A DNA stretch of 64,000 nucleotides from an uncultured Muribaculaceae bacterium. GTDB lineage: Bacteria; Bacteroidota; Bacteroidia; Bacteroidales; Muribaculaceae. Numbering within the stretch: position 1 is the first letter of the stretch; every line of letters begins with the position of its first letter. The position numbers and the translations under genes are program-made. Below, in pieces: positions 2,454 through 32,907 of this stretch. The stretch lies in the NCBI GenBank assembly GCA_947625935.1, contig CANQQE010000007.1, positions 13,724-77,723 of the forward strand, read 5' to 3'. The notes below the pieces were generated by a model. That model searched no databases and had not been told where the DNA came from. It saw nothing but the letters and a program-made list of their open reading frames with translations.

Positions 2454-2594
2454 CGTCTGTTTTTCTTCGATATGGGAACGGTCTAACTGCTGGTCCTCGT
2501 AGACGTCGCGGTACCTGGCGTCGTCCTCGGCCTTTTGATTTTGGATCTTATTCCAGTTGGTTTTCTTCGCCATTTTGTTCAATCCTTTCCGGGT

Positions 2595-5264: not shown

Positions 5265-7088
5265 TTATTGGTTCATAGTTTTTGCTATCTGGTTAAACGT
5301 ATTCTGCGTCTCATCGTCAAGCTCTACAAATTTCTCGCCCACAACAACGTATGCCTGTGTTTCCAGCTGTGTCTTATCCAGTACGGCCATCTTTCCGGCA
5401 ATGCTGACGTAGACATCTTTTTGCGTCTTGTGTTCGTTAATGTATCTCGAAAGCGGTACGATCAATTCACGCTCCAGCTTAGATACAACGATACGGGCAC
5501 CACCGGAATCAGAATCCGTATCCAGCTTATCATATATCAGATATAAAAATATATTCTTGTGGACATGCAGGTTCACATTATGCCGCTGCTTCACACGGTC
5601 TTTGAGCGACTGCAGCTTCATATTGACGATGCCCATCATCGTACGCTTTGACAGCGGCTGAAAAGGAACAATGCAGTCGATACGGCCTAACAGCTCAGGC
5701 GGAAACTTATTTCCTGATTGGCTCTTGATCGACTCACGGATCAGCTTATCGTACTTTTCCATCATACGGAAATCCGCTTTATCGGATTCGCCATACGCCG
5801 AAATAACTTTATAGATCTCATTACCGGCATTCGTTGTGATGATGATATAAGCGTTCTTAAATGTCACCTCACGCTCATTCTCATCCAGCAGACGGCCGTC
5901 ATCCAGCACCTGCAACAAAAGCCTTGTCACGGACGGCGCCGCTTTCTCGATCTCATCCAGCAAAATAATGCAATACGGCAGAATAGAGACCTTTCTGGTC
6001 AGCTCAGTCCTAAACCTGGCGATTGAATCATCCTGCGCATACTCTGTCATATCGAAACGGATCAGGTTACGGTCATCATCATATAAGATCTGGGCCAGCT
6101 GCTTTGTCGTCTCTGTTTTACCGGTACCGGTAGATCCTGTGAATAAAAACGAACTCATAGGCCGATTCGGGTTGTTCAGGCCGGCCACGCAGATCTGTAG
6201 TCTCTGCTCGATCATTGACGTGGCTACTTCCTGGGCCAGGACTTTTTTATCCAGCTCTTTTTTAATTGTCGTCGCATCTACTCGGAAGGCCACGTTGATG
6301 CCCTCTGTTTCGTAGATAACGTCTGCCAGGAGCTTAGAATCCAGGCGCCGCCCCGTAAGCCTGTACCAGCCGATCATGGAATCCAGGATTAAAATCGACT
6401 TACGCGGCTGGGAATTAGCCGGGATATACCGGTTCGTATACTCATAAATCGAGTGATAAAGCGACTCTTTATGCGGTTCCACACCGTAACGCTCGCACAT
6501 ATTTTTCAAAATCGAAACCACAACATCTTCACCCGGCTGTACCAGCTTAATACGCTGCAGACGTTCTACCAGAGGCAGGTTCGGCGCAATATACTGCTGA
6601 TACTCAACATGCGTGGTTGCAGCGATAACTCTGATGCCGCGGGTACCGGAATCAGCCAGCAGCGGCTTTAACACTTCGACTGCAGCCGGCGATAACTGCA
6701 CGATCTGATGGAACTCGTCAATGAATAACACGATTTCACGGTTCATGTTCACGCGGTATCGGGAAACCTCATCAAACAAAGTTTTTAATCGATCAGCCAT
6801 CTCGTTTTCATTTTTTAAATTCGCGATCATTTTGGAAAGATCAACTTCCAGATAAGTACGCCCGGTATCTTTGACCATGATGCCCTGCACCAGGGCTGTT
6901 TTACCGGCACCGGCCTCAGCCAGCAGCAGCACATTACAATACTCAGGCTTCAGCATGGCAGCCATGACCTGCTCCATCTCATGTTCCCTGCCGACGAGCT
7001 GTCTGGTCATGGGCTTCAGATGATTCGTATATTTGTTCATATACGGATACGCTTCAATCAGATCTGTATCTTTATCATCGAAAAGCAT
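5265..7088 (-). CDS. ClpA/ClpB-like double-AAA+ ATPase (no N-domain or M-domain)
   Basis: D1 has Walker A LLLAEAGAGKTALV and Walker B VLFIDEFHQ. D2 has Walker A FLFTGSTGTGKTETT, Walker B IILLDEIEKA, DGRLLD..REVTFKNAYIIITTN and PPELLGRIDCIVPF. GGAGG SD. Confidence 0.8.
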   Translation of the reverse strand: MLFDDKDTDLIEAYPYMNKYTNHLKPMTRQLVGREHEMEQVMAAMLKPEYCNVLLLAEAGAGKTALVQGIMVKDTGRTYLEVDLSKMIANLKNENEMADRLKTLFDEVSRYRVNMNREIVLFIDEFHQIVQLSPAAVEVLKPLLADSGTRGIRVIAATTHVEYQQYIAPNLPLVERLQRIKLVQPGEDVVVSILKNMCERYGVEPHKESLYHSIYEYTNRYIPANSQPRKSILILDSMIGWYRLTGRRLDSKLLADVIYETEGINVAFRVDATTIKKELDKKVLAQEVATSMIEQRLQICVAGLNNPNRPMSSFLFTGSTGTGKTETTKQLAQILYDDDRNLIRFDMTEYAQDDSIARFRTELTRKVSILPYCIILLDEIEKAAPSVTRLLLQVLDDGRLLDENEREVTFKNAYIIITTNAGNEIYKVISAYGESDKADFRMMEKYDKLIRESIKSQSGNKFPPELLGRIDCIVPFQPLSKRTMMGIVNMKLQSLKDRVKQRHNVNLHVHKNIFLYLIYDKLDTDSDSGGARIVVSKLERELIVPLSRYINEHKTQKDVYVSIAGKMAVLDKTQLETQAYVVVGEKFVELDDETQNTFNQIAKTMNQ

Positions 7089-8388: not shown

Positions 8389-8417
8389 ATTTTAATATAA
8401 AAGCACACACCTGTCAA
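8389..8417 (-). promoter_or_regulatory. Promoter for CDS 7240..8340
   Basis: TTGACA - 17 nt - TAAAAT. The -35 box overlaps the relaxase stop codon. Confidence 0.55.
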
Positions 8418-14991: not shown

Positions 14992-17900
14992 TTATCTTGA
15001 ACTTTCCATCTGATCATTATAAGTGTCGATCAGGACTTTATACTTCCAGTCTGTCTGGTTCCAATCATCTCTCGTAGCAGTTTCCCGTGTCTTGCCTATA
15101 CTCTCTAATTCTTCGTCGATCGACTTCGGCGTGGACATGAACAGCATATACGAAAATTTCTTGCCTTCCTGCTCAAAAAATCCATAAAAATCCAGATATG
15201 CCACTTTCGGCCCGCGGGTGCCGCGCGATCCGTGGACTACCCAGTGTGCAAAGTCACCCACCGGATCTAAGATTTCGTTGCCGTACATATCATAATGCGA
15301 ATCCTCGTCACGCGCCACTCTCGGCGAATTGAGCCCGCCCAACCCGGCGTGCATCACATGGTCGCCGCCGGCAATCTTGCTGATAAGAGAATACGAACCC
15401 TGCGGATTGCCGAGCATATCAGGCTCTGAATGAATACCGTTGACATACTGCCAGTCTGCAGCCGTGCCAGTATATAACTCTTTGATCAGCTCTTTTGTAT
15501 GGACACCGAACAGATCTTCCACCGTTACATGTGTTGTACGCTGTGCATAATTGGCGATCGTATTCATCAGATAATGCTTGCCTTTTGTCTTATCCTGCAG
15601 ATAACTGTCCGTCATCGTACCTGTCCCGGCCGCATCGGATTTCAGATGCTCATACATCACAAGGCCGTCCGCGCCCACTGCAATAAACGCATACGCGTTG
15701 CCCGGATCATCCGCTGTTGCAGCAATATACGGCGCCGTCTTATCAGGTCTTGGATAGCCGTAAGATGGGGGCGGATCCCCTGCAGACCAGCTCTCGCCTG
15801 CCGAAGCCGTCCACTGGTTCGCCCAGTCGATATCCGTACGCTCACTGTCAAGGCTTTCAAACGTATATTTAATATTGTCCGGTTTTAACTGGACTACATA
15901 ATCCCTGTTCGGACGTCTGCGGCCGCTCATCTGAGACGGGCTGAAATCGCTGAACTCATCAAAATCTTTGTCGTTCATCTGAACATATACGACAATCTCA
16001 CCAGGCTCGATCCCCTCACCTGTTTCGTTATCATAGACTTCGCCCTCGATCACCTGGCCATCTTCTGTGGGATCTTCTTCCGGCGCATAATCTTCCGCCG
16101 GGAACCATTCTGTCTCAAATTTCTCGACCAACTCTTCCCAGGTCATCTCGTTGCCATTCTTATCCAAATAGCGCCATTGATAATAATCATCATCTTTATG
16201 GTCATATCCGGCATGTGCCCAGAACTCATCATAAGCCTTGATATCAAGAGACAGATCCACTTCGATGCCGCCGGTCTCAGGATTTAAACGGCCTGTTTTC
16301 TTCCATTGGAGTCTGAATGTCGTAGCAAGTACGGTATCCGGAATATTGGAAGTGTCAATTACTTCATAGTGGCCTTCTCTATCTTCGTGGCCAGGAATTT
16401 CAACCTCATAAGATAAATTTTTGTGTAATTCTTCTACCTGATCAAAATCTTCCCAGTTTGAATAAATGGACTCGTCGTAAACTTCTTTTGTGTCGATAAA
16501 AGGCTCGCGGCCTACATGGTCGGCATCCAGACCGAAATTGTCACCGTATTTATTTTTCCGACCTTCTTCATCCGTGATATCCGCACCGAGCATATCTGCC
16601 CGCTCCGTCTCGTCGTCATTCAAATGAGACTCATCGGCGTTGATGATCAGATAAACCTTTGGCATGTAAACGCCGTCAATATTCTCATAATGTTCATCGA
16701 GCCATGTCGGAACGCGGTCGTCTTCGTCTTCATAGACTTCTTCGGATTCCGGGTCCGGATTTTCTTCAGGATCATATGTGAACATCAAAGGATTGCTCTC
16801 ATATTCCGTATCTTCTTTTTCGATCGTAATCGGCACGAACAGATCGTTATATTCGTTAATTTGGTCCTGATAATCCTCATACCCCATAGAAGTAAATTCA
16901 ACTTCACGAAAATCCTCAGCCGTCACGCCCCAGGTCCGCCCCGCATCCTGATACACGTCTTCATCCAGGGCCTTTTGCTTTTTGGACCACATCTGCATCA
17001 AATCCTGGAACAAATCGTTCGAAATAACCGTATTGTACTGGAAAAACTCATGCGCATACGGCGCGGTCACATCATTGACCGGATCGTCGATCCAGTATTT
17101 TGCCCGCGGATTATCCTCGTCAAATAATGCTTCTTCTTCTTTTCCGAACAGTGAAAATTTATGGCTGATCAATTCACCGGAAGCGTCCACATGAGCCGGC
17201 ATATACTGATATCCGTTCACATAGGCATTTTGGTCGAGCCCCTCGGCATTATCGTAATAAGTACCGATGGCCGCATCTTCTTCATTCGGCAAACTGCAGT
17301 ACTGAGTAATCAACATCCATCTGTTATGCTGTTGCTGCTGATAGACCATATCCGTAAACGCTTCTACCTGGTCAGCCGACCAGCTGGGACAGGACTGCTC
17401 GATATCGTGCTTGATCTCTTCCCACGCTTTGAACGTGTTCAAACCGTTCTTTTCTTCCCCAGCCGTTAAGAACGATTCTTTCTGATCGTTGCCTTTCTTC
17501 GCGTATTTACGCTTGAATGAATTCCCAGCAGTCATAACTTCGTCAATTTTTGCCGTAAAATCGCCATAATCTAAGAAGAACGCGTTCTCACGGGTGCTGT
17601 TGGAAGTACCCTCGTAATCGTCCATATCCGTGTTATCCGGCTGATGATAGTCAAACGCTAATTCTTCTTTGATCCAGTTAAAGATCGGCACTTCCTGTCC
17701 CTCCGGCAGGTCTTCCGGTTCTGCAATATCTGAAGTCACGCTCTGCGACTCGTCTGCCGTTGCAGCATAATTGCGCTTCTGATCATAAATATAATCACCA
17801 TAATAGCTCTGTACGGCATTCGCCCCGGCATAGATCATGATATGTCTCGTCGTCAAGTTGCTCATATCTACGAACCGGGAAGGCAGATTGCCAAACCCGT

Positions 17901-19662
17901 TATCCTGGTTGCCCATGCTGACCATGATCGTACCGGAAGAAATATTTGCCGCACCGGTATAAGAATACAATACGTCGCCGCGCAAAAATCCAACAGGGTT
18001 CCATAATTCATTGCCGTCGGCGTTTCGTGTGCCCTCGGCTGCCGTCAGATCACCCGCATCATAGCTTTCATTTACACTGTCCGCGTCGTCTACCTCGCCC
18101 GCGTTGCTTGCCGAACCGGTCAGCATATAAGTAAGCTGCATCACAGGGTTTCCTGCGGGGAAATTTGCATCTGCCCCTGACATACGGACAGGGACGCATG
18201 CCGACCTGTCACAGGACGAGAAATAACCGTCACTGCCGATACCTGTTTCCTGCGGCAGTACGAACAAATGCGCCTGATAATAATACTGGGTAGACGCCCA
18301 TAGGTCACGTTTCTCGCCATGCGTGAAACTTGCATCGTTAATAATATACGGCGCAAAGAAGCTCCGCCTGAGGCTCGCCCCGGCCTCGTCATCATTTGCG
18401 TAATCACCGCCTTCCAGCCATGCCACAGAGAGAGCTGCGTCTACGATTCCGGAGGTCTGCAGCACATATCCGTTATCGCAAATCGTCGCATCTGCGTTTC
18501 TCGCGGATCCCGCAGCCAGATCCGAACCGGCTAAGATCGACGCCATATTATCTACATCGCTTGTGTACTGGCTGTTCGCCGCGGCGGCCATTACATAGCC
18601 CGTCGCTTCCGGAATATTATCTGTTCTCTGGCTCACCAGGGCAGGATCGCTGTTCCCGCCGCTGACAAAAGTTGTAAAGAAATTTACGGTGGAATTATAA
18701 GCATCCAGCCCCTGCCACTCACCGCTGTCCGGCGCGAGGCTTGGATAGCTGTTCTGAAACTCAGCCAATAAGAACGCAAGCTGATAAGCCAGGTCATACC
18801 AGTGATAATCGCCGGAAATAACATCCTGGCCGTCCAATAATTTATCGCCGCGCTCACCCGTCCACTGCACCAGGCCAAGACCTACGCAGACATTGCCGTT
18901 AGAATCCATATATCCGCTGTTCGCATTTGGGAACTGCTGCCCGTATGCCCAATATGCCTGTTTGGACGTATTGGCGTCTGCACCGCCGCTCGGAGACCCG
19001 CAGGCTGCGAAAAATGCCTGCTCTGCTGCTTCGCCCGCGCCGTGCTCGATAATCTCAGCTTGGACGTGCGACTCTGTAATAAAACATGAGATCATGCCGA
19101 TCAGGAACTGTTCGGAATAACCGTAATGGTTGACAAAAACATCATACATGATGTTCACGTTTTCCTGAATGTCCTCATCCTGAGAAGCCAATCCGGAATT
19201 TGTGTCGATCACGTCTCCCACGCAGGTCCATGGGATCTCGTTCTTGACCAGGCCTTCGTGCTTCCGATATTCAAACTGCGATAACGTGAACAACACACCA
19301 CCGCCTATGATGATAGATAAAAACATGATCGCCGTTTGATCTTTTACGCCGAACATGGACGCCACTTTTGTAATGCCGCCCATGATATTTTTACCCATAT
19401 TTGCTTTGAATGTGAAAAAACCATTTTTCGCACCCTGGGCCAGATTTGATGCCTCTTTATTGCCAGCGCCTAAAAGCCTTGACAATAAAGACTGTTTTTT
19501 CTTCCCAGAATTTTGAGTTTCCCGCGTCGCATTCTGCACATGCTCTTTATTCTGTTCCGTAGACGCCTTGACCTGCGCGGTTCTGTCTTGAATCGACTGA
19601 AACTGTTCCTGGTCTTCAGGCGTGATCTCTATATCACGCCTGTCTTTATCTTTTTCACTCAT
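14992..19662 (-). CDS. T4SS cell-wall hydrolase (lysozyme-like plus NlpC/P60-like domains) with a roughly 900-aa C-terminal extension
   Basis: 1556 aa with a GGAGG SD. N-terminal TM IMFLSIIIGGGVLFTL. GLGLVQWTGERGDKLL is a muramidase/phage-tail-lysozyme-like motif. Cys and His motifs YFSSCDRSACV and TRHIMIYAGAN resemble NlpC/P60. This two-domain layout is known from CwlT/TcpG/PrgK-type hydrolases. Confidence 0.7.
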   Translation of the reverse strand: MSEKDKDRRDIEITPEDQEQFQSIQDRTAQVKASTEQNKEHVQNATRETQNSGKKKQSLLSRLLGAGNKEASNLAQGAKNGFFTFKANMGKNIMGGITKVASMFGVKDQTAIMFLSIIIGGGVLFTLSQFEYRKHEGLVKNEIPWTCVGDVIDTNSGLASQDEDIQENVNIMYDVFVNHYGYSEQFLIGMISCFITESHVQAEIIEHGAGEAAEQAFFAACGSPSGGADANTSKQAYWAYGQQFPNANSGYMDSNGNVCVGLGLVQWTGERGDKLLDGQDVISGDYHWYDLAYQLAFLLAEFQNSYPSLAPDSGEWQGLDAYNSTVNFFTTFVSGGNSDPALVSQRTDNIPEATGYVMAAAANSQYTSDVDNMASILAGSDLAAGSARNADATICDNGYVLQTSGIVDAALSVAWLEGGDYANDDEAGASLRRSFFAPYIINDASFTHGEKRDLWASTQYYYQAHLFVLPQETGIGSDGYFSSCDRSACVPVRMSGADANFPAGNPVMQLTYMLTGSASNAGEVDDADSVNESYDAGDLTAAEGTRNADGNELWNPVGFLRGDVLYSYTGAANISSGTIMVSMGNQDNGFGNLPSRFVDMSNLTTRHIMIYAGANAVQSYYGDYIYDQKRNYAATADESQSVTSDIAEPEDLPEGQEVPIFNWIKEELAFDYHQPDNTDMDDYEGTSNSTRENAFFLDYGDFTAKIDEVMTAGNSFKRKYAKKGNDQKESFLTAGEEKNGLNTFKAWEEIKHDIEQSCPSWSADQVEAFTDMVYQQQQHNRWMLITQYCSLPNEEDAAIGTYYDNAEGLDQNAYVNGYQYMPAHVDASGELISHKFSLFGKEEEALFDEDNPRAKYWIDDPVNDVTAPYAHEFFQYNTVISNDLFQDLMQMWSKKQKALDEDVYQDAGRTWGVTAEDFREVEFTSMGYEDYQDQINEYNDLFVPITIEKEDTEYESNPLMFTYDPEENPDPESEEVYEDEDDRVPTWLDEHYENIDGVYMPKVYLIINADESHLNDDETERADMLGADITDEEGRKNKYGDNFGLDADHVGREPFIDTKEVYDESIYSNWEDFDQVEELHKNLSYEVEIPGHEDREGHYEVIDTSNIPDTVLATTFRLQWKKTGRLNPETGGIEVDLSLDIKAYDEFWAHAGYDHKDDDYYQWRYLDKNGNEMTWEELVEKFETEWFPAEDYAPEEDPTEDGQVIEGEVYDNETGEGIEPGEIVVYVQMNDKDFDEFSDFSPSQMSGRRRPNRDYVVQLKPDNIKYTFESLDSERTDIDWANQWTASAGESWSAGDPPPSYGYPRPDKTAPYIAATADDPGNAYAFIAVGADGLVMYEHLKSDAAGTGTMTDSYLQDKTKGKHYLMNTIANYAQRTTHVTVEDLFGVHTKELIKELYTGTAADWQYVNGIHSEPDMLGNPQGSYSLISKIAGGDHVMHAGLGGLNSPRVARDEDSHYDMYGNEILDPVGDFAHWVVHGSRGTRGPKVAYLDFYGFFEQEGKKFSYMLFMSTPKSIDEELESIGKTRETATRDDWNQTDWKYKVLIDTYNDQMESSR

Positions 19663-19677
19663 AATAGGACCTCCGTT

Positions 19678-21117
19678 TTAATACAAGAAGAACTTCGATG
19701 TATCCATATTCGTGGTCAGCATCTGGTTCACGGATTTTGCCTGATATTCCAGTGCTAAAAGCTCATCCAGATGCGTATAATAATTCTTCTTATTCGTCAT
19801 ATAGCCGTTCAGCGCCGACGTATATGCGTTAATATCAGCTACGAGAGAAGACATATAATCTTTGGCAATACCATCCTGCGAATTGTTTGTTGTCTGCATT
19901 TCAACATAACTTCCGTCGATCTGCCGCCAGCTGTCGTATTTAATCGTCGAAGGCATCAATGACGTATACTCATCCGACTGATATGTCTCTTTATCTCTTT
20001 GGTATTGCGCATAATATGTCAGATAATCCTGATCGGAGATCTGCTCGCCGCCTGCATACGCCTGGGCCAGCATACCGTAAGATAACGGCTTATTCTGCCA
20101 CTCGAAATCCACACATCCGGGATACAGATAATCAGTATGCAGAAAATAATAATTATGTTCGATCTCGTCTTTATCGGTGTATTTGATACCCTCTCCCGCA
20201 GCTGCTTCAACCATATTATCCGAAATTACTGTCTCTGATGTCTCGCCGATCTCAGCACCGTCATAATTAGAAGAAATGCCGCCAGTTGAATCATAACACA
20301 TTTCAGGCTCAAATTTCAACGGCTGCGTCTCAGCCGGCTCGCTGATGTCCACCACGTCGCTCGCTATGTAATACGGCAGCTCCGGCACCAGAACACTTAA
20401 AGCCAGACGCTCAGACGTTGAAGTAAAATCCAGATAATTCTGCCGCATGGAATTTGTATCATTGATAAGCCTCAGATTCAGATTATTATATTCATCTGCT
20501 AAGACAATATCGCCGTATACATCCGTAGGCGATACAACTGTCTTATCCAGACATTCCAGCTCTTCCATCATTGGCGAACCCAAATTAAACTGCAGTCTGA
20601 CCTGGTTATGATCATAGAACGACTGATCTTGTTCGATGTTCGGGTCAAACGTATTTGTATCGGCAATAATAGACGCTGCTGTATCATCACGGATGATCAG
20701 GCTGTACACCTGACTGGCAAAACCTCTGTTATCCGTCAATAAGATCCCGAAATATCCGGTATTGCCGTAAGAATACATAATACAAGTCGGCTTGTTGGTC
20801 ATCTTCGTATTCACGCCGCTCATATAAATAGAATAGTTGCCCGCATTGACCGAAGACTTACTGCCGTTGTGCAGCATGATGAACGCTTTTGTGTTGTCGC
20901 TGTTCGTGCGGACATCAACAACATTGCCGGTATCACCGGTACGTGACCATGTATAAGACGGCGTATAAATCACTGTATCCGACAAATGCGCTCGATTGGA
21001 CACTTCCTGCAAATGGATTCCATACACCGTGAAAGTGCAGATTAAAAAGAAAAACGCGAAGATCAGCGCAAAGAACCTTTCAGTTCCGTAGTGGCGCCCA
21101 AAAAATTTTCCGATCAT
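19678..21117 (-). CDS. Membrane-anchored T4SS-associated protein (function unknown)
   Basis: 479 aa with a GGAGGAGG SD. N-terminal TM FFALIFAFFFLICTFTVYGI is followed by a large extracytoplasmic domain. Lies directly upstream of the hydrolase gene. Confidence 0.7.
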   Translation of the reverse strand: MIGKFFGRHYGTERFFALIFAFFFLICTFTVYGIHLQEVSNRAHLSDTVIYTPSYTWSRTGDTGNVVDVRTNSDNTKAFIMLHNGSKSSVNAGNYSIYMSGVNTKMTNKPTCIMYSYGNTGYFGILLTDNRGFASQVYSLIIRDDTAASIIADTNTFDPNIEQDQSFYDHNQVRLQFNLGSPMMEELECLDKTVVSPTDVYGDIVLADEYNNLNLRLINDTNSMRQNYLDFTSTSERLALSVLVPELPYYIASDVVDISEPAETQPLKFEPEMCYDSTGGISSNYDGAEIGETSETVISDNMVEAAAGEGIKYTDKDEIEHNYYFLHTDYLYPGCVDFEWQNKPLSYGMLAQAYAGGEQISDQDYLTYYAQYQRDKETYQSDEYTSLMPSTIKYDSWRQIDGSYVEMQTTNNSQDGIAKDYMSSLVADINAYTSALNGYMTNKKNYYTHLDELLALEYQAKSVNQMLTTNMDTSKFFLY

Positions 21118-21299: not shown

Positions 21300-21668
21300 T
21301 TATTGGCCAAGCTCTTCCAGCTCATTCGACAATGCGTTACCGAGACCGCTCTCATTAGATGCGGTCAAAGTGTCTTTGAAAAATGCACCGCCGGCACAGA
21401 ACAGAGCGCCGATAATGATCAACAGGATATTCACTACCCAGTTAACCTGAGTCTTACCATGAGAGATAAGGCCCTGTGCGATCTTGAAAATGCCGACGAT
21501 GATCATCACAATACCGATAACGATCATCAACGCAGCACCGATGTCGCGGAGTTTGTCACTCGCATTGCTAAGAACGTTCTCGATAGACCAGCCGCCGGAA
21601 CCGCTGAACATAATTCTTGTGAACGCCGCATTGCAGGCTGCTGCAGATTTTACGACCATAGAACCCAT
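21300..21668 (-). CDS. Small two-TM protein, candidate VirB2/TrbC- or Maff2-like component
   Basis: 122 aa with an AGGAGG SD. Two TM helices (GAALMIVIGIVMIIVGIF and WVVNILLIIIGALFCAGGAFF) are joined by a short KIAQGLISHGKTQ loop. Monocistronic, with its own promoter and terminator-like hairpins. Confidence 0.4.
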   Translation of the reverse strand: MGSMVVKSAAACNAAFTRIMFSGSGGWSIENVLSNASDKLRDIGAALMIVIGIVMIIVGIFKIAQGLISHGKTQVNWVVNILLIIIGALFCAGGAFFKDTLTASNESGLGNALSNELEELGQ

Positions 21669-21831: not shown

Positions 21832-24800
21832 TTAAGAATTAGAATTCTGGCCGATCGAACCGTTCTCATAAACGCCTTCAACTTTCTGAGCCGTGTCGTT
21901 ATTATAAAGATCAATCTGATCGCCGTCACCGATACCGAGCTTAGCCGCCGTCGAACTTAAAGCATTATACGTCGTCGCCGCGGCTTCACGCAGCTTCATC
22001 TGAGCCGAAGCGTTGATCTGCTGTCCGCCCGATGTAGTTACGTTATCATGCAGACCTTTCTCCTCCATGCTGCCCGCTGAAAGCGTAACGTCCATGCTCT
22101 GATCTGAATACGTAGTTCCACCGCCTGCGATCCTTGCGTCAATGAAACTTGCGTCTCCGCCGTCAACGCTCATTGCGTAAGAAGCTGCTACCGCTCCGCC
22201 ATTCTGGCTGACATTTCCCGCTCCGCCGCTTGTCGAACCTATAGTCATCATGCTGCCGCGAGACACATCACCATAACTTGCCTGCATACCGGATCTTCCA
22301 GCGTGACTGTTGATTGCGTCGATCGAATCACGGTAATCTGCTGTTCCGAAATTACTCTGCGCCATCTGATCCATGCGTGAAGCGATTTCCTGTTTTGTTG
22401 CACCGTCTGCGACCATTTGGTCGATCTCTTCGCCCTGGACAGCCGTAAGTCCGTTGACATCATAAGTGTTGGCCAGCTTCGCCCATCCCTGATCGCTGTT
22501 CGTTTGATTCGGATTCGGCCTTGCCTCGGCTGTTTTCGCCTCGCCGGAATACTGCTCCCTGAACTGCTCTGCCCGCTCAGCATCACCGAAGTTCTCCTGA
22601 TCGTATTGGCCTTCCAGTTCTTCCGCGCCTTTCAGATCGCCGCTGTCCAATTTCTCGTTAATTGCATCCTGCTGCTCGTCTGTATAGCCGCTGTCGTTAT
22701 AGTTGCCAAATCCGGCCAGCGCCCGCCTTGTTGCATCGTCCTCTTCGTTGTCAACACCGGAAGCCTGCCAATCGCTGATATCGCCCTCTGCAGCCGCCTC
22801 GTCAACAGAACCGTCATCCATATCACCGCGGGGATCTGCTGCCGCACCGTCAACACCTGCGCTTCCGTCTGCACCGGAACTGCCGGAACCGCCGTTCTTG
22901 AGCGCATCTACGCCCTCAGCCATAGAGTCTACGGCACCGCTGATATCGCCGTCTTTGATCTTATCCATTGCATCTGAGAACGATTCACCTGCGTCACCGG
23001 CCATGTCGCGCACTACGTCGCCCAATGCGCCATCGGTATTCAAAGCATGGGCCGCCATAGCACCTGCACCCACTGCTGCGACAGCACCAAGCGTCCCGCC
23101 ATTCGCGCCCATAGGCATCTGAGCCTTTGTACCGAACATAGAGTTTAAAATCGTCGTGATGAAACTCTTGATCGTGATAATAATCGCTTTCCGCCAGCGG
23201 ATCAACTGCATCGTGCCCCAGAGAATACCGCATATTGCGACGGCATTGCCAATCGCCGTAGGAATATCATATCCGGCGCCGCTCAGAATACTGCTTCCGC
23301 CGCCACCTCTCAAGATACCCATGATGAATTGAATGGCCACTTTCATCAGACGGACGATGAAATCGACAATGTGGACTGCCAGGGAGTACAACAGGCCTGT
23401 CACGGCCAGCTCCGTAATAATCGCCATGACCGTTGCAAGAGACTCTACGAAGCCCTGGATCGAACCGACCATCATTTTGAAGATCGACGGGATCATCTTG
23501 ATCGACTCAACGATAATGTTCATCATCATCGAAATTCCGAACACCCACCCCAGCATGCCGAACGAAGTCAACATAACAAGCGTATAAGCCAGCTGAATGA
23601 TCTCGTTGAGACCAACATACGCCGCCGTCACGCTGTAATGCGCAACTGTAACACCGGAGCTGGACAACAAATCCCTTGCATGTACATGCACGTTACCGTT
23701 TTCAAATATGCTCTGCATATAGTTATACATAGACATAGCCGACATGCTGTTATGCACAGATAAGTCAAATGTAGCTTTTATAATTTCACCACTGCCACTA
23801 GCATCGTTGACACGTATGCCGTCAGCATAATTATCCCCGGCACGTAATGTATGCGTAAACAAATATTCGCCGCCGCCGCAATGCAATACGACACTTTGGC
23901 CAACGCCTGTGGTGCCTAATAATTCCAAGTATATGCGTTCATTTGAATCACTGGCATTGATATCTATTTCATTCTGATCACTATCAACGCCATCATCATA
24001 CATTGAAAAAGCCCATAAGCCGTTTGTGGCTGTATCTTTCGACAGTAACGCAGATAAAATTGCATTATATATTGATTGGTATTGTTTAAGCGTATCAGAA
24101 TCACTACCGTTTGAATATCCTGTAAGCGACTTTACTGCTTTGGATATTTGATTGATATCCGGAGTAATTGCGCCTGTATATGTATCAGGATCAATCGTTT
24201 CGCCCTGCGCATACCGCAGCACAAGGCTGCGGCAGTAATCATATAATTCTGCTGTATCAGCACCGGACGCAGCATTTCTTGCAACAAGATTAGCATAATC
24301 AATCGTCCGATCGCTGGTATTTGCCACATTATGTGTAGCCGATAACCCTGCAACTGAACCGCCTGAATTATAATTCAAATTATAAATCAGTTCTGCCATC
24401 TCAGGAGCGTTGCCATCGGCTAAAACGACCATATCATGAGTAACAACATTATATTCTATTGAAAGCGATTTACCTACAGGAAAACAATATTTTGGATTTG
24501 CTGTAGCTGAACCAAAATCACAGAATTCTTCATAAATATACGAAGAAACTCTGTATTGCGTAGAATCCGTATACGCACCGAGAATCGAAATACACTCATG
24601 GTAGATCATCATGACCAAAGGTACGCCGATGAACATTACGACAACCCGATAGAACAAAGTTTTAGCCTTTTGATATGCCACCTGCGTCGCGTTATAAGCC
24701 TTTGTCTTAAACACCGTAATAGATGCGACAAAAATAATGATCATCAAGCCCAGAATAACAAACCTAAAATTACCGAGAGCTGTATAGATCCTCTTTACGT

Positions 24801-25554
24801 CCTGCATAAGAGGTGCGCTCTGGATCGTCGATATGATCGTACTGTCACCGCCATTGATACCTGGTGAAGTAGAACCATTGAACAAATAACCAATGATATC
24901 CAAGCTGCCCATAGCTTTAATTACAGTCGATACCAATCCGGATGCCGTATATGCCAGTACATAGGCAATATAAATCGTATATCCAAAAAATACGCGGAAA
25001 ATATCATTTGAGTCGCCTGCATTCAAAGTCTCATCAAGACCCATATCAGCCCACATCTGGCCAAACATGATATATTGAATGAATTTATTAGCAGATGCAC
25101 CTGATAAATCTGTATATTTTTGTGCACCGTCTTCAGCATTCTGTGCATAATAAGACAAAAAAGTATCAATCGTTTTTGTATATGAATCCGCCGATTGACC
25201 GCTTGATACAGCTCCACCGGAACCTTTATCGCTCGTAGCCTCTTTATCTGACGGACCTAAATAATTACCAACCGTACCAAGTTTAACATTACCTAAAAAG
25301 GTATCATTACCGTCAGCTCCATGTGCCTGAAACCGCCCTTCAATCGTCTCTTCCGCCTGGCTCAGAAGATTTGCAAGATTCAAAAACGAAGTATTCGCCG
25401 TATCGCCTGAGGACGCGTTCCCGCCGTTCGCCGCGTTTACGACCATGAGAGAACAGGTACCTGCAACGACCAGAACGGCTAACAGAAGCGTCAGCCGGTC
25501 CGATACGTAAAAAATATTTCTGCATTTGTGTTTGATCTTATTTAAGAGTTTCAT
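21832..25554 (-). CDS. VirB6/TcpH/PrgH-like polytopic membrane protein with a Gly/Asp-rich C-terminal tail
   Basis: 1240 aa with many hydrophobic helices in two clusters (around aa 170-330 and 640-800). The start overlaps the stop of the VirB4-like gene (ATGA-type coupling). The size and position fit Gram-positive VirB6 analogues. Confidence 0.6.
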   Translation of the reverse strand: MKLLNKIKHKCRNIFYVSDRLTLLLAVLVVAGTCSLMVVNAANGGNASSGDTANTSFLNLANLLSQAEETIEGRFQAHGADGNDTFLGNVKLGTVGNYLGPSDKEATSDKGSGGAVSSGQSADSYTKTIDTFLSYYAQNAEDGAQKYTDLSGASANKFIQYIMFGQMWADMGLDETLNAGDSNDIFRVFFGYTIYIAYVLAYTASGLVSTVIKAMGSLDIIGYLFNGSTSPGINGGDSTIISTIQSAPLMQDVKRIYTALGNFRFVILGLMIIIFVASITVFKTKAYNATQVAYQKAKTLFYRVVVMFIGVPLVMMIYHECISILGAYTDSTQYRVSSYIYEEFCDFGSATANPKYCFPVGKSLSIEYNVVTHDMVVLADGNAPEMAELIYNLNYNSGGSVAGLSATHNVANTSDRTIDYANLVARNAASGADTAELYDYCRSLVLRYAQGETIDPDTYTGAITPDINQISKAVKSLTGYSNGSDSDTLKQYQSIYNAILSALLSKDTATNGLWAFSMYDDGVDSDQNEIDINASDSNERIYLELLGTTGVGQSVVLHCGGGEYLFTHTLRAGDNYADGIRVNDASGSGEIIKATFDLSVHNSMSAMSMYNYMQSIFENGNVHVHARDLLSSSGVTVAHYSVTAAYVGLNEIIQLAYTLVMLTSFGMLGWVFGISMMMNIIVESIKMIPSIFKMMVGSIQGFVESLATVMAIITELAVTGLLYSLAVHIVDFIVRLMKVAIQFIMGILRGGGGSSILSGAGYDIPTAIGNAVAICGILWGTMQLIRWRKAIIITIKSFITTILNSMFGTKAQMPMGANGGTLGAVAAVGAGAMAAHALNTDGALGDVVRDMAGDAGESFSDAMDKIKDGDISGAVDSMAEGVDALKNGGSGSSGADGSAGVDGAAADPRGDMDDGSVDEAAAEGDISDWQASGVDNEEDDATRRALAGFGNYNDSGYTDEQQDAINEKLDSGDLKGAEELEGQYDQENFGDAERAEQFREQYSGEAKTAEARPNPNQTNSDQGWAKLANTYDVNGLTAVQGEEIDQMVADGATKQEIASRMDQMAQSNFGTADYRDSIDAINSHAGRSGMQASYGDVSRGSMMTIGSTSGGAGNVSQNGGAVAASYAMSVDGGDASFIDARIAGGGTTYSDQSMDVTLSAGSMEEKGLHDNVTTSGGQQINASAQMKLREAAATTYNALSSTAAKLGIGDGDQIDLYNNDTAQKVEGVYENGSIGQNSNS

Positions 25555-27479
25555 ACCTGTTTAAACCTCCCGCGAATATTTCCAACCCCAAGAACCAGAT
25601 CCATGTTGAACAGCACGTTCGCGCCATTCCGCCGGATGAACGTCCTCATAGGGCCTTTCTTCGTCAAGCTGCGTGACAGATTATCGGGAATACGCTGGTT
25701 GATCAGCTTCTGATAAGCATCTACCTGCACCGGCGTGAACGATCCGAAGATCGTATAATCCGCCTGATCTATCTTGCAGAACCGGTTATCATCAAAAGAC
25801 TTGTCGATGCTGTCATATAAAAAGCATACCCGCCCGCCGCGCCGGTATAACGCGTCGAACTGCCGGTTCACATATTCTTTCACGGCGCCGTCGATATGCT
25901 CAACACCGTGGATCACGACCAGATCGCCCTTTGACAAACTACGCACCGCATACGAAACAATGTTCACGAACTGTGCCATAGCTAACCCGTTGCCACGGAT
26001 CAGCAGATCCGAAAAATTATAAATCACGCGCTTTGACCTGACCGCATCATCAATCTGAGAATTTGTAACTACGTTAAATAAGTCGCCGTCCGTATCCAGC
26101 ATCTCGGTAAATGCGATCTTTAATATTCCCAGCGCATCCACTCTCTGCTGATCTTTCACATCCGCCGCATTGGCCTTTTTATGTTCCATCTCGATATAGG
26201 CGTTGAACATCGCTAATTTGGGATACGAGGTATGAGGTAGGCCTAAAATCCTCAGCAGATGCTTTTGCTTCTGAGCATCTTTATACCACATGCCCTGGTC
26301 GATGTAATATTTCTCCAAAATTTCTTTCAACACGCCCAGTGTAACGCCGCGCTGCTCCTGTGTCAAGGGATGCACCTGTTCCAGCATCAACGATATTTTC
26401 TGCAACTGCTCTGAAAAAATCGAAAGCTCGTCATCCAGATACGGATCACCGAACATCTCGAACATGTTGATGTCGCCTTTGCTCAGATTCAAACGCCTTG
26501 TGATCCCGTTAAACTTCGGCCCCAGCTCATCCAGTTTGGTATCGTCAAAGATAAAATGCACGACACGCCCGTTCTGCATCAGCGTACTCTGCGCCAGCTT
26601 AGATCCCCAGTACGCCGAAACAGGATTTCTGGCATCCGTTTCGTCAAAATCGTTGTTCGCGATTACGACATGATGCTTGTAACCGTTCACATCAAACAAA
26701 ATCGCCGCGTTATTTACATCATCAGTCATAACGCCGACATACTCGCCATTCTTATCATCCAGGCCCTTTGTGACCAGATTATAAGAACCGGCAAATTCGA
26801 CAGATGTAAAACCGAACATCTTCCCGCGCTGCTTCTCAGGATTTGCCAGAAGAGAACCCAGTTCATCGCGCTGACAGGCATCCATCGGCCCTGCCTGCAG
26901 AGAACCGAAACGCTCGATATACGTCTGTTCCATTTTATCAACTGTCTTATCAAGCAGTTCCAGCGAATCCGCTTTGACAAGCATCTTATAGATAACTCCT
27001 AAATAACAGCCGCTGGACTGAAGTTCTTCAGCAATCCGCTGGAAATCTATGGCCTTTGTCCTGTTCCGCAGCTTTGCCGTAGACGTACCGCCGTTATTGT
27101 TGATCTCGGTCTCGTTCATCTGCGTGATGCCTTCGGCCTTGCTCTGATGGGAGCTGATCCAGCTCTCCGTAAAACGCTTGATATTTTCGAATGAAATAAT
27201 CGAGACACCGTCCGGAATGCTCATCACGACACGGTTGATGCCCCAGAACGCACCAAAATGATCGTCTACCCCGTCAGGGTGCATATAAGTCAGGATCGTA
27301 CAGTATTTACCGTCGATCTCAAAATAATCAGAATGAAAAACATATTTTCTTTTCGGCTTGATATTTAACAAAAACGGTTTCTCGTCATAAGTAACGCGCA
27401 TCATTTCATCCGCTTTGTCTTTGGACTTTTTCTTTGTCGCAGTCAGCTTCTGTGCCAGCGCATCCGTAAAATTCGGCAT
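25551..27479 (-). CDS. VirB4/TraE/PrgJ-like T4SS protein lacking recognisable Walker A/B motifs
   Basis: 642 aa with a GAGGAG SD. Position (between the VirB3-like and VirB6-like genes) and layout resemble VirB4. Where the P-loop is expected the sequence reads NGYKHHVVIANNDFDETDARN. Where DEAW is expected it reads LVVIHGVEHIDG. There is no GK[ST] anywhere in the protein. Confidence 0.5.
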   Translation of the reverse strand: MPNFTDALAQKLTATKKKSKDKADEMMRVTYDEKPFLLNIKPKRKYVFHSDYFEIDGKYCTILTYMHPDGVDDHFGAFWGINRVVMSIPDGVSIISFENIKRFTESWISSHQSKAEGITQMNETEINNNGGTSTAKLRNRTKAIDFQRIAEELQSSGCYLGVIYKMLVKADSLELLDKTVDKMEQTYIERFGSLQAGPMDACQRDELGSLLANPEKQRGKMFGFTSVEFAGSYNLVTKGLDDKNGEYVGVMTDDVNNAAILFDVNGYKHHVVIANNDFDETDARNPVSAYWGSKLAQSTLMQNGRVVHFIFDDTKLDELGPKFNGITRRLNLSKGDINMFEMFGDPYLDDELSIFSEQLQKISLMLEQVHPLTQEQRGVTLGVLKEILEKYYIDQGMWYKDAQKQKHLLRILGLPHTSYPKLAMFNAYIEMEHKKANAADVKDQQRVDALGILKIAFTEMLDTDGDLFNVVTNSQIDDAVRSKRVIYNFSDLLIRGNGLAMAQFVNIVSYAVRSLSKGDLVVIHGVEHIDGAVKEYVNRQFDALYRRGGRVCFLYDSIDKSFDDNRFCKIDQADYTIFGSFTPVQVDAYQKLINQRIPDNLSRSLTKKGPMRTFIRRNGANVLFNMDLVLGVGNIRGRFKQV

Positions 27480-27504: not shown

Positions 27505-28377
27505 TTATGCAGCGTAGATCGTGTGATATACGAACTCGACATCCTCTTTGTATAAGGCTTCGACCGTGTTGAACATCAGCGAAGAATTATGTACTTCATT
27601 GGATAAGATCGAATGAGCCTTGGCAGCATACTCTTTGGAGCCGGCTACCAGCAGTAAATACTGATGAATGCTCTTAAATTCCGAACCGACGAATTTGTCA
27701 AGCACATCATAAGAATCCTGCATGATCTTCTGGATGTCCTTATCGTTGTTATCGCGCTCACGAAATAATTTTTTGAAATTCATCTTTTGGCGGATCACTT
27801 TTTGCGGCTCTTTGACCGTAATATATTCGATCCGGATATATTCCGGCATTTTTCTATAAAAGTTATCCACGCGGTCGATGATCGCGGCTTTATCGCTGTC
27901 AAATAAAAGCGCCGACGCATTGCCTACGACGCGATACATAAACCCGCAGGTGCCATCCAGGAACGTAATGAGGCCGGTATTCTCATCAATATCTTTTACG
28001 CCGACCATGCGGTAAAACGCCGTGGGATTGTCGGTCCGCCTTGTCTTTAAGACTCTCGTGGACTTGTTGAACATATAAGTTGCCATATAACGCAGCGCCT
28101 TGAACCGGCTCTGCCCGCCTTTATCCGTCGTTGTGACCAAAAAGACGAACGCGAGAACACTTCCCATGAAAAGGACTTTGAACAACGGATTCAAATAATG
28201 AAACGGCAGCGCCTGTGTGAAACACATAATGAACGAACCGAATACCGCCGCGATCCAGACAAGAATCACCTTTAACGGTAAGGGCCGCAGGCCGACGCCG
28301 CCGTTCGTCTGCAGTGCCACTTCTGTATCAAGATACGAAACATCCAGGTTTGTGGGGATCTTATACGATGCTTTCAT
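27505..28377 (-). CDS. PrgI/TcpE (VirB3-like) membrane protein with an extra C-terminal cytoplasmic domain
   Basis: ORF track start 28383 is TTG; ATG 28377 is better spaced from the GAGGT SD. The N-terminus YKIPTNLDV...GLRPLPLKVILVWIAAVFGSFIMCF plus a second TM LFKVLFMGSVLAFVFLV forms the typical VirB3/PrgI hairpin. Confidence 0.5.
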   Translation of the reverse strand: MKASYKIPTNLDVSYLDTEVALQTNGGVGLRPLPLKVILVWIAAVFGSFIMCFTQALPFHYLNPLFKVLFMGSVLAFVFLVTTTDKGGQSRFKALRYMATYMFNKSTRVLKTRRTDNPTAFYRMVGVKDIDENTGLITFLDGTCGFMYRVVGNASALLFDSDKAAIIDRVDNFYRKMPEYIRIEYITVKEPQKVIRQKMNFKKLFRERDNNDKDIQKIMQDSYDVLDKFVGSEFKSIHQYLLLVAGSKEYAAKAHSILSNEVHNSSLMFNTVEALYKEDVEFVYHTIYAA

Positions 28378-30599: not shown

Positions 30600-30630
30600 A
30601 TGCAATACCTCTCTATGTTTTTATAAAAGC

Positions 30631-30741: not shown

Positions 30742-32907
30742 TTATTTTACGAACTCTACGACCTCGATCTTCTCGGCAGATGCGTTCCATTTCACTTTTG
30801 CTTTGAACGCCTTGCCGGATTTCCCGATGAATTTATTTCCGAGAATTGTCTTCCCGGCCTTCAGATCGGCTTTCTCGGCATCTGTGAATGTGTACTGGCA
30901 CCAGCTGCTCGGTCCGTCGTTAATGAAACGCGTCCTGGAAAAACCGACGAACTCAACGCCGTTATAGGTCTGCTTCTCCAGTTTACCGGCACATTTGTAC
31001 GGCTTCCCTGCAGACGAGACCGCGTCGATCTGGATTTCTTCACCGTTAAGCAGCGCCTCGCATTCATCATCCGTAAAACGGTGTCCCGACCATATTCTTT
31101 TCGGATGCACTTCCTCACCGTTCCATGTTCCCTCAAATCTTTCCGCCTGATCTCCACTCATAGTTAAATTAAGCTCCTTTCTCATATTTTGGCCGTTTGT
31201 GTTCATAACGGCGATATCGTCCAGGACAAAACCTGCGACTTCTGCGAGGCATTCGTCCGGATCTTTTTTCTTCTCAGCGATCAGCTTCATGTCATCAAAG
31301 ACATGTGTCGTGATCTCAAGCGTGCCGATATGCGTTCCCGGCAGCAGCTTGTAGCTCATCGTGCCGTATTCCGTCATCGTGATCTTGCCCTTGCTGTCCT
31401 TCAATAACGGATATTTGGACTTCTCATTCGTGATCTCAGCGTATGTGCTCGTCCGCGTCGCACCGGTCCCCACGTCTGCCTTGTCAAGCTGGTTCATGAG
31501 CCACTTCATCGTAGGCGACTGCGGCTTCGGCGGAAATCCTTCGTAGATAAAAGGCGAACCCGTCATACCGAATCCCGCTGCATTTTCGGACTCATCCGGA
31601 TCATCGTCTGTCTGATACACCAGCTTCCATCCGGGCTTGACCGGAATGCTGACGTGAGACTTAAAATCCGGATATTTCTCTAAATAAGCGTCCTGCGCAT
31701 CGTACTCATAATCCTCGCACAGCATGGCCAGATACGACGTCGCCAGGATATAATAGATCTCTCCCGCGCACTTTCCATAAGACGCCAAGTCGTTTAATTT
31801 ATCCGGCACATTGGTTCCAGGCCGGTTCGCGCCGTGGGCCATGCCTTCTTTTACAAAGCCTGTCCTGGGAGATTTATTTGTCAATAATGCCGGATCTACG
31901 CCGACTACATTAGCGATTTTATCGCAGTACGGCAGCAGTTCATTGAACTGTTCCAGCGTAATTGCTTTATCTTCGGTCCTTGGATAAGACACTACCTGGG
32001 CTTCATACATCTTCTGATAAGTGTCCAGCACCTCTTTTGCTTTGTAGCCTTTTGACGACAATCTCGCGGATAAAGTCGCCAGGTCGATCAGCTTGGGCGG
32101 CGCTTTTTTCTTACGCGTCTTCCCGCCACAGATCACGGCCGAGTCATTGTACTTACCTTTCGGAACCTGGTTCTTGTCGTCGTATTTCTGCTCGTCCGGA
32201 TTCACAAAGATATTGGAGTTCTCGTCTTTGAACCGATACTGGTAATACGGGATCTTTTTGTATCCATTTACTTTGGCCAGCTGGTCGCCTACCAATAAGA
32301 TCATCGCTGATTTCAGCCGCCCCTGACGCAGCACCGCCTTTCCGTCCCCGCATTTTGTGGCCACTCTTGTGAACTGCATCGACAGAAAATCCCACTTAGA
32401 CCTGTAAAGCGCCTTCTGATAATCAGGATCGTCATAGATCGAAGCGAAATGCTTGCGGTTCACAAAGGCTTTTTGCAGCGAAGCCGGCGCCTCATCGGCA
32501 AAGAACATCCTGGAATACTTTTTTCCCGAATCAAAACCGAGATTGATGATGATCTCGTCTGCCAAAAGCGTTCCCTCACCGGAAGGGTCATCATCCGTCG
32601 CAATCACGATCTCATCGCATTTCAAAAACGTATCGCGGATCGCGTCCAACGTGTCCGTCACATCATCTTTTTCGGCATAGTCCCACTTGAAATCACCAGG
32701 ATCCCAGGGCATATTATTCAGCGCCCAAGAATGATACTTATCTTTTTTATCTTTCGGCACCTGATGTTCCGGATCTTTGAACTCATACAGGTGTCCGCGG
32801 GCGCAGCACAGCTGGAATGATTCACCGTTGTAAGTCCCGTTCGTCCCGCCGAACGCTTTGGCCATGTTCCGCATTGCGCTGGGTTTTTCTGCTAAGATAG
32901 CTAACAT
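30742..32907 (-). CDS. topB: Type IA DNA topoisomerase (topoisomerase III-like) of the conjugative element
   Basis: Toprim N-terminus MLAILAEKPSAMRNMAKAFGG. Acidic cluster VIATDDDPSGEG. Active-site tyrosine context QVVSYPRTEDKAI. Repeated C-terminal beta-rich modules. AAGGAG SD. Confidence 0.85.
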   Translation of the reverse strand: MLAILAEKPSAMRNMAKAFGGTNGTYNGESFQLCCARGHLYEFKDPEHQVPKDKKDKYHSWALNNMPWDPGDFKWDYAEKDDVTDTLDAIRDTFLKCDEIVIATDDDPSGEGTLLADEIIINLGFDSGKKYSRMFFADEAPASLQKAFVNRKHFASIYDDPDYQKALYRSKWDFLSMQFTRVATKCGDGKAVLRQGRLKSAMILLVGDQLAKVNGYKKIPYYQYRFKDENSNIFVNPDEQKYDDKNQVPKGKYNDSAVICGGKTRKKKAPPKLIDLATLSARLSSKGYKAKEVLDTYQKMYEAQVVSYPRTEDKAITLEQFNELLPYCDKIANVVGVDPALLTNKSPRTGFVKEGMAHGANRPGTNVPDKLNDLASYGKCAGEIYYILATSYLAMLCEDYEYDAQDAYLEKYPDFKSHVSIPVKPGWKLVYQTDDDPDESENAAGFGMTGSPFIYEGFPPKPQSPTMKWLMNQLDKADVGTGATRTSTYAEITNEKSKYPLLKDSKGKITMTEYGTMSYKLLPGTHIGTLEITTHVFDDMKLIAEKKKDPDECLAEVAGFVLDDIAVMNTNGQNMRKELNLTMSGDQAERFEGTWNGEEVHPKRIWSGHRFTDDECEALLNGEEIQIDAVSSAGKPYKCAGKLEKQTYNGVEFVGFSRTRFINDGPSSWCQYTFTDAEKADLKAGKTILGNKFIGKSGKAFKAKVKWNASAEKIEVVEFVK

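Follow-up and report, generated by a model that had tools for sequence, protein, structure and literature searches.

A 642-amino-acid (aa) protein encoded on the minus strand at 25551..27479 of the window analysed here, a stretch of 64,000 nucleotides (C7:13724-77723; contig C7 is CANQQE010000007.1 of assembly GCA_947625935.1), is a true homologue of VirB4, as judged from profile alignments and a structural model in which the RecA-like C-terminal fold is kept. In it and in its whole family, a variable loop with no lysine or glycine signature takes the place of the Walker A P-loop, and the DE pair of its Walker B motif has most probably been replaced by an almost invariant H-G. The gene, referred to below as pseudo-VirB4, lies in what its gene content marks as a Gram-positive conjugative transfer locus. 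It is the only VirB4 homologue found in its element, and its relatives occur together with two intact ATPases, a VirD4-type coupling protein and a ClpB-like protein. No prior description of this family was found in the literature.

Homology to VirB4 and loss of the Walker motifs

The open reading frame (ORF) begins with an ATG preceded by a GAGGAG ribosome-binding site, and its TGA stop overlaps the start of a 1240-aa ORF as ATGA. The preliminary description of this DNA had placed at this site a VirB4-type protein lacking Walker A and Walker B, with a VirB3-like gene before it and a translationally coupled VirB6-like gene after it. The reading frame, the gene order and the coupling were all borne out; the strand, which had not been given, is minus.

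Curated sequence models miss the VirB4 likeness of the 642-aa protein. Neither this protein nor its unannotated neighbors matched any family in Pfam, NCBIfam or PHROGs, and among the models that it left unmatched were PF12846 (AAA_10), PF03135 and the NCBIfam VirB4/TraC models. Ten diverse members of the family likewise gave no VirB4-related Pfam match, even at E values up to 1, and sequence searches of the PDB, with the single protein or with a family profile, returned nothing relevant and did not recover the VirB4 structures. By sequence, profile-profile comparison alone reached VirB4. With hhalign, a broad canonical VirB4 profile (TcpF relatives plus actinomycete and Paenibacillus VirB4 sequences) was matched with a probability of 77% and an E value of 2e-5 over 493 collinear columns, pairing residues 26-620 of the 642-aa protein with residues 211-779 of the 824-aa VirB4 of Nocardiopsis; in TcpF, the corresponding part is approximately 224-814. 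The match was convincing only with this broad profile, that made from TcpF relatives alone giving weak scores (probability of 9-15%, E values of 2e-3 to 4e-3). Several sequence blocks are common to both proteins, namely, GD..G.Y[VI]G before strand 1, hhhhD after strand 2, GD.N.FE.F and the R.GGR strand.

The structural comparison was in agreement with the profiles. An AlphaFold2 (AF2) model built on 26 family members reached a mean pLDDT value (predicted score in the local distance difference test) of 75.6, with residues 260-640 mostly at 80-97 per 10-residue block. When this model was compared with the PDB by using Foldseek, the 16 best matches were all VirB4 chains, among them R388 TrwK (8rtd), matched at an E value of 2.5e-18 over approximately 620 columns, N-terminal domain included. 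The C-terminal domain of Thermoanaerobacter VirB4 (4ag6) gave a target-normalized TM value of 0.78 and a root mean square deviation of 3.9 Å, and HerA, DndH and VirD4-type chains ranked below VirB4, with much weaker scores. The model has the layout of VirB4, an N-terminal domain followed by a C-terminal domain that is RecA-like and into which a helical bundle is inserted. The homology proposed in the preliminary description was thus upheld by both approaches.

The two sequences quoted there as the remains of Walker A and Walker B, NGYKHHVVIANNDFDETDARN (from residue 265) and LVVIHGVEHIDG (from residue 520), were found where they had been placed. In all three hhalign profile alignments, HHVVIANNDFDET was aligned on xxxxGxxGxGK[ST], HHVVIA-NNDFDET pairing with xxxxxG-xxGxGK[ST] of canonical VirB4, and the residues found after strand beta-1 at the position of the P-loop GxxGxGK[ST] are ANNDFDET. 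The AF2 model contains at this point a strand (270-274), a 13-residue loop and a helix (288-301), with no glycine-lysine signature. No GK[ST] and no [AG]xxxxGK[ST] occurs anywhere in the 642-aa protein, whose only GK dipeptides are GKY (57) and GKM (219). By itself, such an absence would be of little significance in a protein taken at random; its weight here comes from the homologous position, which was located by profile alignment and by the model and has no P-loop. The protein thus lacks the Walker A motif of a VirB4 protein at the aligned site, and it also lacks hhhhDE.

The likeliest Walker B strand is LVVIHG, the alternative being RVIY[D/N]F, and neither contains a DE pair. The register was taken from the order and spacing of secondary structure elements rather than from an alignment, and its exact position is tentative. 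After the helical insertion, the model shows a strand (484-488), a helix, a strand (520-524), a helix, two further strands (550-555 and 575-578) and a hairpin, while canonical VirB4 has first the 'RLNILQI' strand and then the Walker B strand, each followed by a helix, and after these the 'RMGRS...hhhh' and motif D strands and a hairpin. Since the two orders match one to one, we read LVVIHG as the probable equivalent of hhhhDE, in support of the earlier equation of this strand with hhhhDEAW.

The 642-aa protein is without the first ~210 residues of canonical VirB4, and a counterpart of this part was found in the gene upstream. This gene (27505..28377, minus strand) encodes a 290-aa protein with two transmembrane helices (about residues 30-85) followed by a soluble domain, which aligned with residues 16-175 of TcpF (hhalign E value of 8e-4). 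Its AF2 model (pLDDT of 76.8) gave weak Foldseek scores (E values of 1e-3 to 1e-2), and its top 10 matches were all TrwK/VirB4. Given that the domain aligns with the start of TcpF and is modeled like TrwK/VirB4, the 'VirB3-like' gene also carries the beginning of VirB4. No VirB3 profile matched the protein, which is about three times as long as VirB3; the hairpin and the position fit VirB3, and the soluble part matches the VirB4 N-terminal domain. To the earlier designation as VirB3-like, which is tentative, a VirB4 N-terminal subdomain has to be added. As read from the alignments and models, VirB4 is split here, with the hairpin and the first ~200 residues of its N-terminal part in the 290-aa gene and the rest in the 642-aa protein. 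Of 83 related loci, 81 contain a homologue of the 290-aa gene no more than 10 kb from the VirB4-like gene, and in most of them it lies immediately upstream.

The preliminary description had asked whether related elements share the loss of the motifs, and they do, the loss being a property of a whole, widespread family and not of one gene. A word-indexed search, in which 8000 candidates were scored, yielded at least 498 clusters at 90% identity, and an exhaustive profile search of 1.84 billion cluster representatives yielded 321 clusters at 50% identity, each of which belongs to this family and none of which is a canonical VirB4. A Walker A motif is absent from the homologous site in all 269 members that were retrieved. 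Conservation was scored in thirteen segments of the C-terminal domain by using 106 full-length cluster representatives. The loop equivalent to the P-loop was the most variable segment (3.43 bits per column, compared with a mean of 2.56 for the domain); it is 6 to 62 residues long and contains 6.5% glycine. The core strands that flank the former P-loop were the most conserved parts (1.4-1.6 bits), D519 and G525 were conserved in at least 96% of the representatives and R617 in at least 95%, and position 524 was mostly H and sometimes Y. The presence of the same motif state in every member indicates an old, stable condition rather than recent decay. Catalytic residues gone in all members, together with a fold and a length conserved across distant hosts, make up the pattern of a pseudo-enzyme.

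The family spans Bacillota and Actinomycetota. Hosts include uncultured Oscillospiraceae, Lachnospiraceae, Paenibacillus and Evansella, and, with 41-45% identity, many Actinomycetota, among them Streptomyces, Nocardiopsis, Arthrobacter and Kribbella. The identity of 43-45% between the members from Oscillospiraceae and those from Streptomyces, Nocardiopsis and Arthrobacter was counted as a sign of purifying selection. Relatives are also encoded by plasmids of Streptomyces, Rhodococcus and Gordonia (40-44%), of Staphylococcus (about 26%) and by linear pELF-type plasmids of Enterococcus faecium (24%), all of these plasmid copies being annotated as 'hypothetical protein'. When 401 genomes representing species of the host's class were searched, the family turned up in the host genome alone; it is rare among such representatives and a sporadic trait of mobile elements.

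Sole VirB4 copy, candidate motors and competing explanations

A canonical VirB4 encoded elsewhere on the element would have refuted the preliminary description, but none was found. The host assembly (3.69 Mb, rated 99.99% complete) gave no PF12846 match above the cut-off, and a hidden Markov model (HMM) of TcpF-type VirB4 found no match among all host ORFs of at least 120 aa. Two complete plasmids with the system, pGKT2 (182 kb) and NZ_CP150776 of Staphylococcus aureus (55.5 kb), contain no AAA_10 and no FtsK/SpoIIIE match. Four of the seven genomes checked had no canonical VirB4 above the cut-off; two had a full-length one on other contigs (Nocardiopsis and Paenibacillus), and a weaker, partial match over the cut-off was found in Streptomyces.

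Only two P-loop proteins are encoded within the transfer operon of approximately 61 kb. One is a ClpB-like double-AAA+ ATPase of 607 aa (5265..7088, minus strand), in which both Walker A and both Walker B motifs are intact. The other is a VirD4-type coupling protein (3..2582, minus strand), which runs past the left edge of the window, where its C-terminal 860 of 1455 aa are contained (complete gene, C7:11932-16296). It has the Walker A motif ITRAGKGQT and the Walker B motif YMLDELGNL, and it matches PF02534, PF12696 and PF10412. An element-specific orthologue of the ClpB-like protein was present in all ten pseudo-VirB4 records compared, with 32-82% identity (at least 48% in six of them, 36% in Staphylococcus and 32% in pELF); the housekeeping Clp proteins of the same genomes showed 33-40% identity, in single AAA+ domains only. 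The coupling protein had an orthologue in nine of the ten records, adjoining the ClpB-like gene wherever the two share a contig.

Some further features of these ATPases deserve mention in their own right. The coupling protein is unusually long, with the VirD4 core at about residues 460-1150 and large N- and C-terminal extensions that are conserved in actinomycete and clostridial orthologues (56-69% identity). Its orthologue in Evansella clarkii (C2:194503-203405) is distributed over four separate open frames of 214-404 aa and may be a pseudogene or contain interrupting elements. Orthologues of the ClpB-like protein in Streptomyces (G001) and in genome G003, and of the coupling protein in the same Streptomyces, are single frames of 1427, 1374 and 1712 aa (G001 C1:1761552-1764428 and C1:1767392-1771915; G003 C8:18306-22301), in which the matching pieces lie 1-2 kb apart in frame; these in-frame spacers within conjugation ATPases suggest inteins.

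Related plasmids bear on whether such a system transfers DNA. In pGKT2, the order of genes (topoisomerase, 296-aa partner, VirB4-like gene, 1272-aa membrane protein, lysozyme and MobL) is the same as in the window, and this plasmid is cited as having been experimentally transferred, with Gordonia, Rhodococcus and Nocardia as recipients (Jung et al. 2011, as cited in PMC5640721). The related plasmids of Staphylococcus and of the pELF type are classed by MOB-suite as non-mobilizable. In pELF_GK941, a group II intron reverse transcriptase (NZ_AP026662.1:22806-24668) directly follows the VirB4-like homologue and occupies the VirB6-like slot; the pELF copy of the module may be disrupted.

With moderate confidence, we interpret pseudo-VirB4 as a non-catalytic scaffold of the inner-membrane complex in a machine whose energy is supplied by the coupling protein and the ClpB-like ATPase. 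The protein would probably no longer hydrolyze ATP. It would serve as a cytoplasmic and inner-membrane scaffold for the VirB3-like hairpin and for the channel protein of the VirB6 type, organizing both, and would also dock the coupling protein. The energy for transfer would probably come from the intact VirD4-type coupling protein and from the co-conserved ClpB-like double-ring AAA+ ATPase, which might, for example, unfold and feed the MobL relaxase.

Several observations weigh against this interpretation. The N-terminal half of the AF2 model is of low confidence. In the C-terminal third hhalign gave no confidence, an alignment limited to this third being not significant and in a different register; other registers were offered, none of them with a DE pair. 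The link between the ClpB-like ATPase and pseudo-VirB4 is one of co-occurrence only, and in two genomes of actinomycetes a distance of 100-160 kb separates the two genes. The genes essential for transfer of pELF lie outside the homologous cluster (PMC13492992), for which reason this cluster may be dispensable or vestigial in pELF plasmids. Conserved polar residues, D519, H524, G525, R550 and R616/R617, persist near the former site, S293 and K294 are conserved within the close subfamily, and it is conceivable, though doubtful, that ATP is bound at a non-canonical site. Finally, the host assembly is in 150 contigs, and the end of C7 cuts the operon off.

The conserved residues are the ground for supposing that pseudo-VirB4 is still a nucleoside triphosphatase in which K294, R284, H524, D519, R550 and R616/R617 stand in for the Walker residues. 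Nowhere is the protein more conserved than in the strands around the former site, the high conservation of D519, G525 and R617 extends over the 106 representatives, S293-K294 is invariant in the close subfamily, and the R.GGR strand resembles the canonical RMGRS motif. However, the loop at the P-loop position is glycine-poor and varies in both length and sequence, K294 lies in the model about six residues into the helix and not at its N terminus, this lysine is not conserved in the distant subfamilies, and no candidate Walker B strand contains an acidic pair. We regard such a residual activity as unlikely.

Less probable still is the provision of a canonical VirB4 in trans, from an unassembled part of the element or another co-resident conjugative element, with pseudo-VirB4 as an accessory paralogue. 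The fragmented assembly and the truncated operon leave space for it, canonical VirB4 is encoded on other contigs in Nocardiopsis and Paenibacillus (with the weaker partial match in Streptomyces), and RvhB4-II offers a precedent of a dead VirB4 beside a live one (PMC4676284). Against this stand the near-complete host genome with no AAA_10 or TcpF-like match, the complete plasmids pGKT2 and NZ_CP150776 without a canonical VirB4, the four genomes of seven without one over the cut-off, and the fact that pseudo-VirB4 itself fills the VirB4 slot, between the VirB3-like and VirB6-like genes.

It is very improbable that the protein is a pseudo-ATPase of the HerA/FtsK clade with a role other than secretion, such as defense or partition, which came to lie in a transfer operon by chance. 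HerA and DndH chains were indeed among the Foldseek matches (E values of 1e-12 to 1e-8), but VirB4 chains scored best and did so over ~620 columns with the N-terminal domain, and the profile alignment to VirB4 is collinear over the whole length. Moreover, the VirB3-like partner accompanies the gene almost without exception, and synteny of the genes for relaxase, coupling protein and lysozyme was seen in three distant plasmids.

That the transfer region is in decay and without function, and the gene a relic devoid of catalytic residues, is scarcely credible: the MOB-suite calls, the intron behind the pELF homologue, the dependence of pELF transfer on other genes and the fragmented Evansella coupling protein could be taken for signs of it, but all ORFs of the locus are intact and translationally coupled, 43-45% identity is maintained across two phyla with near-invariant residues throughout the superfamily, and pGKT2 is cited as transferable.

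The surrounding transfer operon

The genes just described belong to a run on the minus strand of the 138-kb contig C7, which shows no terminal overlap. In the order of transcription, the run begins with an actin-like partition protein, an adhesin of the TQ-ester/SpaA type and a sortase. These are followed by a type IA topoisomerase, a GlcNAc transferase, two uncharacterized proteins (the second of which is the 290-aa protein) and the 642-aa protein. After it come the 1240-aa polytopic protein, a 1556-aa Phage_lysozyme2 protein, the MobL relaxase, the ClpB-like ATPase and the coupling protein. Pseudo-VirB4 is thus surrounded by VirB3-like, VirB6-like, coupling-protein and relaxase genes, as expected in the gene cluster of a type IV secretion system (T4SS), and on this gene content the locus is a Gram-positive conjugative transfer locus. 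The same transfer synteny is repeated in pGKT2, in the Staphylococcus plasmid and in pELF.

The 1240-aa protein (21832..25554, minus strand), with about seven predicted transmembrane helices, was not matched in Pfam; its homologues, as detected by BLAST, adjoin the VirB4-like gene in 41 of the 83 loci. By its position and topology only, and with the ATGA coupling already mentioned, it is a putative VirB6-like protein. Downstream in the same operon, two smaller membrane proteins are encoded on the minus strand, one of 122 aa with two transmembrane helices (21300..21668), conserved in six related loci, and one of 479 aa with a single N-terminal helix (19678..21117), found beside the module in 24 of the 83 loci. 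The 1556-aa cell-wall hydrolase (14992..19662, minus strand) matches Phage_lysozyme2 (PF18013, E value of 5.8e-12) and would be the functional equivalent of VirB1; the annotation 'Phage tail tip lysozyme' also occurs in the related clusters carried by pGKT2, by pELF and by the Staphylococcus plasmid. The relaxase, of 782 aa (8414..10762, minus strand), is of the MobL family (PF18555, E value of 5.7e-37), and 'relaxase MobL' is annotated in the syntenic cluster of pGKT2.

Upstream, the TopB-like type IA topoisomerase (30742..32907, minus strand) is the most conserved neighbor of the module, present in 61 of the 83 loci with a median identity of 50%. Between it and the VirB3/VirB4 module lies a gene for a GlcNAc-type glycosyltransferase (29466-30605, minus strand; PF11397, E value of 6e-37), for which the 83 related loci showed no homologue. 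Where the operon ends, to the left of the window, an ORF of 2750 aa (C7:3597-11846, minus strand) has a single Pfam match, RNA_pol_Rpb1_2 (E value of 3.4e-6, residues 1995-2058), and may encode, on a conjugative element, a giant protein whose catalytic domain resembles that of RNA polymerase.

Significance and comparison with known systems

VirB4 is regarded as the motor ATPase behind every type IV secretion machine. It is the only protein said to have recognizable homologues in all known T4SSs, and its phylogeny underlies the classification of these systems (PMC4027160); its profiles serve as a signature for the detection of conjugative elements (ICEscreen; PMC9513070). What is new here is a hitherto unannotated Gram-positive conjugation variant of the T4SS with a split and probably inactive VirB4. 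A family in two phyla whose only VirB4 appears to be catalytically dead raises the questions of what ATP hydrolysis by VirB4 is for in pilus-less bacteria and whether another motor can replace it, and pGKT2, cited as transferable, offers an experimental test system. Machines with pseudo-VirB4 probably run on other motors and escape standard detection.

Tentatively, we suggest that there is a class of Gram-positive conjugation machines without VirB4 ATPase activity, in which VirB4 would be a pure scaffold and a ClpB-like unfoldase the second motor. Such machines could combine a split pseudo-VirB4 and a VirB6-like protein with two ATPases, namely, a long VirD4-type coupling protein and a ClpB-like AAA+ protein, and with a MobL relaxase and a lysozyme, a composition that we put forward as possible rather than probable. 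With the same reserve, the class might extend over gut Clostridia and Bacilli, plasmids of staphylococci and enterococci, and many Actinomycetota. If this is true, it would constitute a new mating-pair-formation class that is invisible to VirB4-based tools such as CONJScan, ICEscreen and MOB-suite. Plasmids with the system are given the type 'non-mobilizable' or, at best, 'mobilizable', and it may therefore be that the mobility of these elements, including those of Staphylococcus and gut bacteria, is underestimated.

Compared with TcpF of pCW3, PrgJ of pCF10, TraE of pIP501, ConE of ICEBs1 and the Pfam family PF12846, pseudo-VirB4 has the same fold and domain order, and it shares with canonical Gram-positive VirB4 the operon slot, with a VirB3-like hairpin before it and a polytopic VirB6-like protein after it. 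In contrast to these proteins, it is unmatched in Pfam and NCBIfam, has a variable loop instead of Walker A and most probably HG instead of DE, and its first ~200 residues are encoded by the upstream gene. According to a 2025 review, Gram-positive VirB4 homologues keep all Walker motifs (PMC12857230). The best structural matches of pseudo-VirB4 were TrwK (PDB 7o41-7o43, 8rtb and 8rtd) and the VirB4 of Thermoanaerobacter pseudethanolicus (4ag5/4ag6), TrwK being also the best match of the upstream 290-aa protein. Both are active ATPases with intact motifs, and their sequence identity to pseudo-VirB4 is 10-14%.

For the partner ATPase, an analogy is provided by ClpV, an AAA+ ATPase of the ClpB family that is dedicated to the type VI secretion machine. 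Like ClpV, the protein described here is a ClpB-like double-ring AAA+ ATPase without protease partner, encoded in a secretion locus and conserved with it, although the system served by ClpV is a different one. We know of no role for a Clp-type ATPase in any T4SS.

Two other groups of elements invite comparison. The 'Hodor' gut megaplasmids (PMC12934698), compared by description only, are similar to the element in GC content, sortases and lysozyme domains; however, the longest protein of the host assembly has 3475 aa, compared with more than 7300 aa in Hodors, and the Hodor relaxase is MOBH-like whereas that of the element is MobL. On these descriptions, identity of the element with Hodors is not established. 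The TraC/TraD system of pELF2 is also Gram-positive and has a VirB4-like partner unlike VirB4 in sequence, TraC being called a 'VirB4 analogue' without sequence similarity to VirB4 (PMC13492992). TraC, however, has 420 aa and a partial ATPase domain, and its gene lies at 72.7-74.0 kb of pELF2, whereas the family homologue in pELF_GK941 is an unstudied gene of 652 aa near 26 kb. The pELF2 genes traC, traD and traG were rejected as counterparts of the pseudo-VirB4 system, as they lie in another region (PMC13492992).

RvhB4-II of the Rickettsiales is likewise a conserved VirB4 paralogue with defective ATPase sites, presumed to be a non-catalytic subunit of its machine (PMC4676284). It is, however, always found beside an intact RvhB4-I, whereas pseudo-VirB4 is the only VirB4 homologue in its element, in several host genomes and in complete plasmids.

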